From Candidatus Methanoperedens sp. (GTDB taxonomy: Archaea > Halobacteriota > Methanosarcinia > Methanosarcinales > Methanoperedenaceae): a stretch of 32,000 nucleotides of DNA. The translations under genes were made by a program, and so were the position numbers. The stretch is from NCBI GenBank assembly GCA_041494705.1, contig JBGQBI010000001.1:30001-62000 (forward strand), given 5' to 3'. Below, piece after piece: positions 15,296-28,039 of the stretch (position 1 is the stretch's first letter; each line of letters begins with the position of its first letter). Under the pieces are notes generated by a model, which searched no databases, had not been told where the DNA came from, and saw nothing but the letters and a program-made list of their open reading frames with translations.

Positions 15296-17875
<2,580 letters not shown>

Positions 17876-25992: not shown

Positions 25993-26853
25993 ATGAATCT
26001 CGCTCTGAATAAGTTTGAAGGATACGGCGAAATAATTGCCGCTTCAATCCTCTGGAGTCTTGCAGGAATACTTGGGAAAATGATATTCGGCATGTCAGCC
26101 CAGAGCATTATTTTCTACAGACTCGCGTTTGCATGGTTTTTCTTTTTTATTGTCCTTTTGATTTCAGGCAACCTGGATAAAATCAGGTTAAAGGATAAAA
26201 AAATCTACCTTTTGTTATTCAGTATTATGCAGGCAATGACAATGCTAACGTATTTCATAGCTATTCTAAAAGGCTCGGTCTCAGTTGCCGTGTTATTGCT
26301 CTATACAGCGCCTGTGTACGTGACGCTGTTCTCTCCCTGGTTATTGAAAGAACGCTCCACAAAGAAGGGAATAATCGCACTTGTTTTGTCAATCGCGGGT
26401 ATCCTTCTCATAATTGACCCGGGAAAACTTGAATTCCAGGGATATTATATCGGAATAATGGCCGGGATTGTGTCCGGCATAACCTACGCTTTCCAGATAA
26501 TAACATCAAAATATATCAGCCAGACATACCGCGGATACACCCAGGCATTCTGGAGTTTCATAATCGCAGTCCTGATTCTCCTCCCGGTAGGGCTTGCGCC
26601 GGTAAATATAGTTTCAGACAATATGATTAATCTTATCCTGCTTGCGATATTTCCGACAATACTTGCAGTATCTCTTTATTTTAACGGCTTGAAAAAAGTC
26701 CGGGCACAAAGCGCCAGCATCCTCGGATTAATTGAACCCGTGAGCGCTGTTATTTTAGCAGTTATCATCCTCAAAGAAGACATTTCAACCCTGGAATTAA
26801 TCGGCGGCGCGCTTATATTGATAGGAGCAGCATTAGTTACAAGGGAAAAATGA
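25993..26853 (+). CDS. EamA/DMT-family transporter
   Basis: 286 aa with about 10 hydrophobic helices and a duplicated EamA-like architecture. Confidence 0.85.
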   Translation: MNLALNKFEGYGEIIAASILWSLAGILGKMIFGMSAQSIIFYRLAFAWFFFFIVLLISGNLDKIRLKDKKIYLLLFSIMQAMTMLTYFIAILKGSVSVAVLLLYTAPVYVTLFSPWLLKERSTKKGIIALVLSIAGILLIIDPGKLEFQGYYIGIMAGIVSGITYAFQIITSKYISQTYRGYTQAFWSFIIAVLILLPVGLAPVNIVSDNMINLILLAIFPTILAVSLYFNGLKKVRAQSASILGLIEPVSAVILAVIILKEDISTLELIGGALILIGAALVTREK

Positions 26854-27203
26854 AAAACTTTAAGAAAGTTTTATCAAAAACCGTCGCGCCGCTTTACTTC
26901 GCAGACACGTATGGCTTTGCCATACGTAAACCTTTAAGAAAGGTTTATCAAAAACTTTTAGAAAAGTTTATTAAATTCAACACGTATGGCTTTGCCATAC
27001 GTGGACACTGCGTAAACCGAAGTTTCGGTTTTCAAACGACAGGTATGCAACGCATACCTGAACACCACGTAAACCGGGGTATCGGTTTACGTGGACACCA
27101 CATAAAGCGAGGTGTCGCTAAACTTTTAGAAAAGTTTATTAAAGACAACACGTATGGCTTTGCCATACGTGGACACCGCATAAAGCGAGGTGTCGCTTTA
27201 TGA
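26850..27203 (+). CDS. hypothetical basic repeat protein encoded through the hairpin array (coding status uncertain)
   Basis: 117-codon open frame whose ATG overlaps the EamA stop (ATGA, 26850-26853) and whose TGA overlaps the map ATG (ATGA, 27200-27203). Repeats read as NTYGFAIRGH and LLEKFIK. There are no family motifs, and the sequence is dominated by palindromes. Confidence 0.25.
   Translation: MKNFKKVLSKTVAPLYFADTYGFAIRKPLRKVYQKLLEKFIKFNTYGFAIRGHCVNRSFGFQTTGMQRIPEHHVNRGIGLRGHHIKRGVAKLLEKFIKDNTYGFAIRGHRIKRGVAL
26854..27202. repeat. dense array of 12 short hairpin/palindrome units (three related families) plus an approximately 79-nt direct repeat
   Basis: Hairpins at 26854-72, 26907-27, 26928-46, 26952-69, 26982-27002, 27014-31, 27040-60, 27067-92, 27106-19, 27120-37, 27150-70 and 27179-202. 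Stems are 5-10 bp and loops 2-6 nt. ACGTATGGCtttGCCATACGT occurs 3 times identically. 26953-27008 repeats at 27121-27176 (54/56 identical). Confidence 0.9.
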
Positions 27204-28039
27204 ACGATACTATTCATGAATATTATCTGGAAGCAGGGAAAATCGCAGCAGAAGTCAGGAAAGAATCCCTTGGCAAAATAAAAGAAGGCATTCCGCTGCT
27301 TGATATCGCCCAATACGTTGAAAACAAAATAAAAGACCTCGGGGGAGTGCCGGCATTCCCCTGCAATATTTCAAGAAATGAGGTTGCGTCCCATTATACC
27401 CCACAGGACAATGTGCCGTGTTTTAAAACAGGTGACGTTGTCAAGCTGGATATCGGGGTGCATATAGAAGGATATATTGCAGATACTGCGACCACGGTGG
27501 AGGTGGGGACAAATAATCACCAAAAATTGATAAAGACCTGCGAAGAAGCACTTGAAAAAGCTATTGCATCGGTCAAAGACGGCGTCCAGACCAACACCAT
27601 TGGCAGGATAATCGAGGAAACCATTAAAAAAAATGGTTTCCATCCAATCAAGGATTTAACAGGGCACAGCCTTGAGAGATACAGACTGCATGCGGGCGCT
27701 ACCATTCCAAATTATAAGAGTTTTTTTGGCAATAAGATAAAAAAAGATATGGTTTTTGCTATTGAACCTTTTGCAACTTATGGTGAGGGTAGAATAAAAT
27801 ACGGGAAACCTTATATTTTTGCAATAAACGACGGGTGCAAAGGAGAAATTGCGCAGGAAATCAGGGAGAGGTTCGGTCCGCTGCCTTTCACTCCCAGATG
27901 GATTCCCGGAATAACGGGCAAAGAACTGAAGGGAGCAAGGGAATATTTTGAACTGATTGAAGAAAGCGGTAATATTGTTGCCCAGTCAGAGCATACGGTG
28001 ATTGTCAAAGAAGATGGGTGTGAAGTAATAACAAAATAA
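27200..28039 (+). CDS. map: type II methionine aminopeptidase
   Basis: Metal-ligand contexts VKLDIGVHIEGYIADTA, LTGHSL, FAIEPF and SEHTVIV. Archaeal length (279 aa). Confidence 0.9.
   Translation: MNDTIHEYYLEAGKIAAEVRKESLGKIKEGIPLLDIAQYVENKIKDLGGVPAFPCNISRNEVASHYTPQDNVPCFKTGDVVKLDIGVHIEGYIADTATTVEVGTNNHQKLIKTCEEALEKAIASVKDGVQTNTIGRIIEETIKKNGFHPIKDLTGHSLERYRLHAGATIPNYKSFFGNKIKKDMVFAIEPFATYGEGRIKYGKPYIFAINDGCKGEIAQEIRERFGPLPFTPRWIPGITGKELKGAREYFELIEESGNIVAQSEHTVIVKEDGCEVITK

Follow-up and report, generated by a model that had tools for sequence, protein, structure and literature searches.

An open reading frame through a mosaic of hairpins between the EamA and map genes of Candidatus Methanoperedens

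Why should a dense array of hairpin repeats, wedged between two genes of an archaeon, also form a reading frame that starts on the stop codon of the one gene and ends on the other gene's start codon? The question is raised by the segment 26850..27203 (forward strand) of a stretch of 32,000 nucleotides (nt), hereafter the window, which corresponds to G000:C1:30001-62000 in a Candidatus Methanoperedens genome of 2.06 Mb in six contigs (label G000, here called the host genome). The segment is a hairpin-mosaic repeat array and reads as an open reading frame (ORF) of 117 codons, from the ATG at 26850 to the TGA at 27201-27203; it is preceded by the gene of an EamA-family transporter (25993..26853, forward strand) and followed by map, coding for methionine aminopeptidase (27200..28039, forward strand). 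An earlier note on this DNA had described an ATGA overlap at both ends, and both are confirmed: the EamA stop (TGA, 26851-26853) sits within the ATGA that opens the array frame, and the TGA of the array ORF overlaps the map ATG in the ATGA at 27200-27203. As set out below, comparison of arrays across the genus suggests that the array is probably a relay ORF, which would preserve termination-reinitiation into the next gene.

The reading frame and its peptide

Within the segment, frame 0 stayed open in only 6 of 20,000 mononucleotide shuffles, and the folding of the single strand far exceeds that of shuffled sequences (z = -12.7). No stop occurs in frame before the terminal TGA, as the earlier note had observed, while its count of 13 stop triplets has to be raised to 14 (eight in phase 1 and six in phase 2). 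The boundaries of the neighbours are shared with other members of the genus, the start methionine of map being at the same position in the orthologues of 48 relatives and the C-terminus of EamA (...VTREK*) being conserved among relatives. The EamA Pfam matches were found on the near-identical gene of strain L207, which is near-identical to the host genome, with differences that are confined to the contig end and look like assembly noise.

The array recurs at the EamA-map site in other species in different forms. Indeed, the six arrays found there differ in their modules and in their length (354, 291, 159, 186, 189 and 258 nt, counted from ATG to TGA); all are multiples of three and open, and their other two frames hold 3-8 stops each. 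Thus, arrays that differ in hairpin content keep the frame open in six cases out of six, the host included, a comparison that the earlier note had proposed. At ten other sites, 21 of 23 orthologous arrays are open up to an xTGA overlap (20 scored by script, together with L197, which is open when read by hand), and the other two have their stop 6 nt ahead of the ATG; no array ends early. The note had named in-frame stops or frame-breaking indels in orthologous arrays as the finding that would speak against a coding constraint; no early stops were seen at the 11 sites, and this check did not refute the constraint. The 35 distinct array lengths at these sites imply at least 24 length changes, 23 of which are multiples of three (authors' tally).

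The same pattern holds across the genus set, which comprises the 98 of 127 arrays (92 unique) in which the end is defined and an ORF of 80 amino acids (aa) or more follows, with interiors of 7.8 kb. In the 92 unique arrays, interior stops number 0 in frame and 85 and 82 in the other two forward phases, while the three reverse phases carry 120, 95 and 38. The stop of the array overlaps the next ATG by 4 nt in 73 of them, lies 6 nt upstream of it in 15 and within 19 nt in four, and none of the 92 arrays is fused in frame to a host gene. The length class q mod 3 = 1, in which the frame stops 16 nt upstream, is represented by a single array out of 98 and by one out of 41 distinct lengths.

The frame is not kept open by a fixed register of the repeats. 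Most of the frequent 9-mers occur in two or three phases; among the stop-free ones the rarest phase still accounts for 125 of 4,426 occurrences (2.8%), whereas for those having one stop-bearing phase that phase is used in 0 of 750. The module GGCGTGACTCGGG, for instance, is found 21, 7 and 0 times in its three phases, and AAACCTTTAAGAAAGGTTT 14, 8 and 0 times, the zero being in both cases the stop-bearing phase. This switching of phase, with the stop-bearing phase never used, cannot be explained by a fixed register. In one array of the EamA-map site (L021), a module placed in the usually forbidden phase has TGT where the other copies have TGA, and cases of this type look compensatory.

The peptide behaves differently from the frame. 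Substitutions affect the three codon positions at 14.1, 12.4 and 13.8%, without bias (P = 0.86); this finding, together with the reading of modules in two phases, indicates that openness is conserved and the peptide is not. The product is basic, as the earlier note had predicted (25 K+R vs 5 D+E), and it contains LLEKFIK twice as stated, while NTYGFAIRGH is present twice rather than three times (TYGFAIR alone occurs three times). No Pfam match was found for the 117-aa peptide, and Rfam, at gathering thresholds, returned no family for the whole window. Database relatives of the ORF product number only 37, and the few with names are hypothetical or uncharacterised proteins of Methanoperedens or of an uncultured archaeon. 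The open frame is therefore under selection and the encoded peptide is not, and the double constraint of hairpin and reading frame is real. As for the alternatives that had been left open at this locus, the evidence favours palindromes that are tolerated within coding sequence, with a double constraint on it; a domesticated repeat protein is contradicted by the two phases and the even codon-position substitutions, and a by-product of the repeat architecture is disfavoured.

Insertion at ATGA and spread in the genus

EamA and map are neighbours throughout the genus, and in 22 relatives they abut or overlap without any array. Three of these belong to the seven closest relatives compared (87-93% identity in map), and 19 are more distant. 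The empty junction of the closest relatives reads ...gggaaaaATGAac... (...aaaATGAac...). The array is present at this site in six species including the host, with a composition that differs among them. In a tree of EamA and map, the empty L015, L016 and L020 are nested among the filled L019, L014, L013, L018 and L017, while in a distant clade L021 is filled and its sister L022 is empty; the pattern implies at least two gains, plus either seamless losses or several more gains. Seamless excision and repeated independent insertion both fit the nesting of empty sites in the filled clade. By comparison of filled and empty genomes, the array 26850..27203 is an insertion, which went precisely into the ATGA shared by the EamA stop and the map start. 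The array of L019 (genome G010) at this site holds about 78 nt of modules (AAACCTTTGGGAAAG...CGAAGTTTCGGTTT) within the loop of a CGCCCTCCCGA/GGCGTGACTCGGG hairpin, with the frame open, and it looks like a nested insertion.

Other sites were compared by joining the flanks of 13 further arrays of the host genome and searching five close relatives, from which 52 regions were taken. At every site but S5, at least one relative is filled or empty in contrast with the host; S5 was found only in G053, where it is filled. Empty orthologous sites are intact gene starts that begin with ATGA, the sole exception being S6 in L174. Three arrays (S2, S12 and S13) are missing from every relative where the site could be read, which argues for recent activity. 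ATGA is present once in the empty sites and at both ends of the filled ones; this arrangement is compatible with a 4-bp duplication or with a target to which the element adds its own end, as in elements of the IS200/IS605 type. The ATGA at both array ends is a property of the element and of its insertion site, not of a gene.

In the host genome, BLAST with the 354 nt, iterated, gave about 56 merged loci of the hairpin repeat, roughly 5.8 kb in total. Copies are usually co-oriented with the flanking genes, start with ATGAAAAACTTTnnGAAAGTTTTATCAAA and close with the end hairpin CATAAAGCGAGGTGTCGCTTTATG or CATAAAGGGGCGTAACCCTTTATG; in most of them the last three bases of the end hairpin are the start codon of the next gene, followed by A. 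The 5′ module opens 127 unique arrays in the genus, 90 of which finish with the terminal hairpin or with its CATAAAGGGGCGTAACCCTTTATG variant. Arrays are about 70 to 400 nt long, their ORFs range from 21 to 130 codons, and the 92 arrays of the genus set contain 374 perfect hairpins, which make up about 60% of their bases. An array between ferredoxin and geranylgeranyl reductase genes (C2:21813-22088) is 97% identical to bases 1-270 of the array described here (26850-27119) and to those only, and its site is empty in the four of five close relatives where it could be read (all but G019); this near-identity, together with the empty sites, indicates that multi-hairpin arrays are copied as whole blocks to new ATGA sites.

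The repeat is present in 23 of the 24 genomes of the Methanoperedens genus that were searched, and 16 genomes of the same order outside it gave one weak match only (E 1.4e-4). The titles of public records likewise assign the repeat family to Candidatus Methanoperedens. Viral contigs gave no exact match to the 5′ module, and a literature search returned no paper describing palindromic or MITE-like repeats (MITE, miniature inverted-repeat transposable element) in Methanoperedens. Four contig ends of the host genome (C1:1-88, C5:1-88, C3:7-113 and C4:7-113) all break within repeat copies. A second repeat, rich in CTCTGTG/CACAGAG, adjoins each of these four ends, and the two repeats together probably caused the assembly gaps.

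Two further occurrences of the family in the host genome lie outside the window. The gene for tRNA-Tyr(GTA) at G000:C4:75475-75645 is interrupted at the canonical 37/38 position by a 96-nt intron (aragorn), and this intron holds two modules of the hairpin-repeat family, AAACCTTTAGAAAGGTTTATCAAA and GGGGTATGCGAAGCATACCCC. A copy at G000:C1:332304-332394 is devoid of the ATG module, and about 38 nt of host sequence (...GTCTAAAAAGGAATGATAATCAATGGGTTCATCAAA...) are directly duplicated on its two sides.

As a simple mobiliser, a Y1 transposase, including those associated with repetitive extragenic palindromic (REP) sequences (RAYT), was considered and rejected. The host genome, which is 99.5% complete, has no match to the Y1 transposase family PF01797, and Y1 counts do not track array abundance: the array-rich genomes G000, G005 and G023 have none, and the array-poor G003 and G004 have 10 and 6, respectively. 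A separate observation concerns a relative with another kind of insert at the EamA-map junction (L041:210-1500, in G009:C73). This insert of 1,291 nt is located at the same ATGA, with ATGA on both sides, and codes on the reverse strand for a protein of 390 aa with a ...CSNCG...CVKCG... zinc-finger region, which is TnpB-like by reading, without a Pfam scan. No TnpA ORF was seen in it, and in the orientation of the insertion sequence (IS) the flanking tetranucleotide is TCAT; no similarity between the IS ends and the array was evident by reading (no alignment made).

Anatomy of the hairpin array

The array of the host is a mosaic of at least six different hairpin types, all described here on the forward strand. 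It opens with the 5′ module, a hairpin TGAAAAACTTTAAGAAAGTTTTATCA at 26851..26876 (fold -4.8 kcal/mol), whose 5′ arm contains the EamA stop and bases 2 and 3 of the array ATG; the module also stops both other forward frames, with TGA at 26851 and TAA at 26861. Repeat search identified three copies of a 23-nt hairpin, namely CACGTATGGCTTTGCCATACGT(A) at 26906..26928, CACGTATGGCTTTGCCATACGTG at 26981..27003 and CACGTATGG at 27149-27171, and the spacings of 75 and 168 nt given for them in the earlier note were recovered (family D4). Two A-type hairpins, AAACCTTTAAGAAAGGTTT and AAACTTTTAGAAAAGTTT, occupy 26928..26969 (family D3, with spacings of 74, 23 and 168 nt); they are relatives of the 5′ module within one hairpin family but are read in other phases (KPLRKVYQ, LLEKFIK). 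A further A-type hairpin was found by the repeat search at 27120-27137, and the array contains four of them in total. Three more hairpins, each recurring elsewhere in the genome, are AAACCGAAGTTTCGGTTT (27014-27031), CAGGTATGCAACGCATACCTG (27040-27060) and CCACGTAAACCGGGGTATCGGTTTACGTGG (27065-27094).

The 3′ part is organized around the terminal hairpin, CATAAAGCGA-GGTG-TCGCTTTATG, at 27179..27202, which has a 10-bp stem (-13.4 kcal/mol). The ATG of map forms the last three pairs of this stem, and a Shine-Dalgarno-like GAGGTG is placed at its apex; the empty EamA-map junction is unstructured in folding. A partial internal copy of the terminal hairpin, ...CATAAAGCGAGGTGTCGCT, is located at 27101-27119 (within 27101..27171), and a 32-nt repeat at 27088-27119 recurs at 27166-27197, with a start-to-start distance of 78 nt, that is 26 codons. 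By reading, the 5′ end of the array (ATGAAAAACTTT) and the reverse complement of its 3′ end (TCATAAAGCGAC) reveal no terminal inverted repeats.

The gyrB intein of the window, which carries an in-frame inverted repeat at 17041-17105, had been put forward in the earlier note as showing the same situation. BLAST of the array against the whole genome gave no match there; a tie of the intein repeat to the hairpin-array family is not supported, and it is a separate matter.

A proposed relay between genes and its alternatives

In the mechanism that is proposed, ribosomes finishing EamA, or loading on the former ribosome-binding site of map, would restart on the ATG brought by the element, translate through the hairpins, melting them on the way, and terminate on the map ATG, where they would reinitiate. 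The insert would thus barely disturb the expression of map, arrays with an in-frame stop would be removed by selection, and the peptide itself would be a by-product. Such a relay would account for the presence of a start codon and the lack of stops, and also for the placing of the final stop at -4 or +6 and hardly ever at +16. In archaea, genes that overlap in ATGA can couple termination to reinitiation (PMC6728339, PMC10666635), a coupling that a spacing of about 20 nt almost abolishes (PMC10666635), and structure that hides a downstream start is melted by ribosomes in the course of translation (PMC12548453). The first module of the element supplies the start codon and, with the upstream stop, forms ATGA anew. 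Among 91 arrays, 43 have the stop of the upstream gene as the TGA within the array's ATGA, and in most of the others that stop is within 15 nt. Homopolymer runs on the sense strand of the 92 arrays are strongly unequal, with four runs of T>=5 vs 139 of A>=5. Oligo-T tracts are archaeal terminator signals, and their scarcity fits a need for transcription through the array.

Several observations weigh against this reading. In 18 of the 91 arrays the analysis showed no upstream gene in the same direction, and coupling to such a gene can therefore be only part of the story; these arrays sit on what was the gene's own initiation region. A few arrays are broken (C3:278404, for example) or have an early end (C4:308788); the 29 arrays outside the genus set are mostly intact, and about five look broken. 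Copies are related by descent, and the counts overstate the number of independent events; when one-step stop variants are scored in otherwise identical contexts, 0 are in frame and 5 out of frame, which, with so few events, gives P about 0.1. The hairpins themselves do not look like RNA structures under selection: distinct hairpins are perfect Watson-Crick in 117 cases and have one mismatch in 22, and the one-mismatch hairpins include 1 G.T vs 9 A.C, the opposite of what is expected for selected sense-RNA helices. The near-perfect pairing and the excess of A.C suggest DNA palindromes rather than selected sense-RNA helices.

The alternative that survives best, though still an unlikely one, is that the array is a translated spacer shielding the operon transcript from translation-sensitive termination or decay (polarity), while the downstream gene starts on its own Shine-Dalgarno-like motif. 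Archaeal polarity via the termination factor FttA/aCPSF1 has been described; the GAGGTG at the apex of the terminal hairpin suits this explanation, and the strong avoidance of sense oligo-T runs fits uninterrupted transcription. However, protection from polarity explains the open frame and not the placing of the stop, which is nearly always -4 or +6 nt and hardly ever +16 nt from the next ATG, and it leaves the burial of the ATG in a -13 kcal/mol stem unexplained.

It is considerably less probable that the open frame is an accident of the repeat architecture and the array an untranslated structured spacer. Repeated units are indeed not independent, whole arrays are copied as blocks, as the one at C2:21813, and newly derived stop variants give no significant result on their own. 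A by-product of this kind is nevertheless difficult to reconcile with a register that is not fixed and a stop-bearing phase used in none of 750 occurrences, with the 23 of at least 24 within-site length changes that keep the frame, with the single array of 98 in the q mod 3 = 1 class, and with the finding that none of the other five frames is stop-free.

Marginally less probable again is a host-domesticated regulator, in which the hairpin stack would tune the EamA:map translation ratio or make map temperature- or helicase-dependent. The sequestration of the start codon in a stable stem and the variation of array length by species at the EamA-map site are in line with regulation, but an array is missing there from three of the seven closest relatives compared and from 19 others that are more distant, the same element is found at unrelated genes, and the fast turnover of presence and absence is what a selfish element, not a conserved regulator, would show. 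Finally, a small basic repeat protein, such as a nucleic-acid binder, whose gene family evolves fast, is the least probable of all: a start, a stop and a 117-codon frame are present, and gene callers in public records annotate such ORFs as hypothetical proteins, but the product lacks a Pfam match and has only hypothetical or uncharacterised proteins among its named relatives, lengths vary between 21 and 130 codons, one DNA module gives differing peptides depending on the array (GVTR or RDS; KPLRKV or TFKKG), substitutions are even across codon positions, and the gene is altogether absent in close relatives at the EamA-map and other sites.

The array can be compared with several known systems. 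Its closest functional analogue appears to be the mycobacterial interspersed repetitive unit (MIRU), a mobile mycobacterial repeat that inserts at start codons and whose internal ORF couples to the host gene with a -4 nt spacing, believed to keep the disturbance of expression small (PMC12548453, citing Supply et al. 1997). By this description the array would work like a MIRU without being one. Both are dispersed repeats located between co-oriented genes on a start codon, and the array ORF overlaps that start by 4 nt in 73 of 92 cases; the host of the array is an archaeon, with nothing to suggest homology, and the two are likened by description, with no MIRU sequence compared. Where the MIRU repeats one 40-100 bp unit directly and in tandem, the array combines varied perfect hairpins into a mosaic, and it buries the downstream start codon in a stem whose apex carries a Shine-Dalgarno-like motif.

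REP sequences and bacterial interspersed mosaic elements (BIMEs) of enterobacteria and pseudomonads resemble the arrays in that several short palindrome types form mosaic clusters between co-transcribed genes, with copy number and composition varying between close relatives. REPs sit after stop codons and are untranslated, whereas the array begins with a start codon, ends with a stop of its own, keeps a stop-free frame under selection and is found at the 5′ end of genes; unlike REP/BIME-RAYT systems, it is abundant in a host genome without a Y1 transposase. Rickettsia palindromic elements (RPEs) are palindromic selfish DNA compatible with translation (Ogata et al. 2000, via PMC10969869), and as in the arrays, hairpin and reading-frame constraints coexist in them. 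RPEs are located in frame within host genes and their peptide is conserved, whereas the arrays are separate mini-ORFs, with 0 fusions in 92, and their peptide is not conserved.

IS200/IS605 elements and their derivatives reduced to palindromes, the palindrome-associated transposable elements (PATEs), may share with the arrays the lack of terminal inverted repeats, the hairpin ends and a fixed tetranucleotide flank (ATGA for the array, TCAT on the other strand); array sites are seamlessly empty in close relatives, and an IS coding for a TnpB-like protein alone sits at the same ATGA in one relative. The difference from IS200/IS605 is that the array-rich host genome is devoid of a Y1 transposase. 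Classical MITEs differ in that the array has, by reading, no terminal inverted repeats, and a protein-coding gene family differs in that the array has no Pfam match, switches phase and shows even codon-position substitutions.

From these features, with about even chances of being right, Methanoperedens may be said to carry an undescribed class of elements, mosaics of DNA palindromes that are transparent to gene expression. Such elements would target the ATGA of gene starts and of stop/start overlaps; they would bring a start codon, one stop-free frame out of six, a Shine-Dalgarno-like motif on the last hairpin and a stop on the host ATG, with no sense oligo-T, and would move as whole arrays, with an abundance independent of Y1 genes.

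The many small basic 'hypothetical proteins' wedged between Methanoperedens genes are most likely the relay frames of this repeat rather than genes, and the repeat, with four contig ends inside its copies, probably contributes to the assembly breaks of Methanoperedens genomes. Archaeal selfish DNA seems to match the mycobacterial MIRU solution for living in operons, using stacked perfect hairpins. If such a class of elements exists, it would be the first genome-wide archaeal case of joint selection on palindromes and on an open frame, and nature would in effect have tested termination-reinitiation across RNA of very stable structure. Dozens of filled and empty alleles may serve as natural tests of how far archaeal ribosomes can carry this coupling through structured RNA and of how tight the limits on the stop-to-start distance are.

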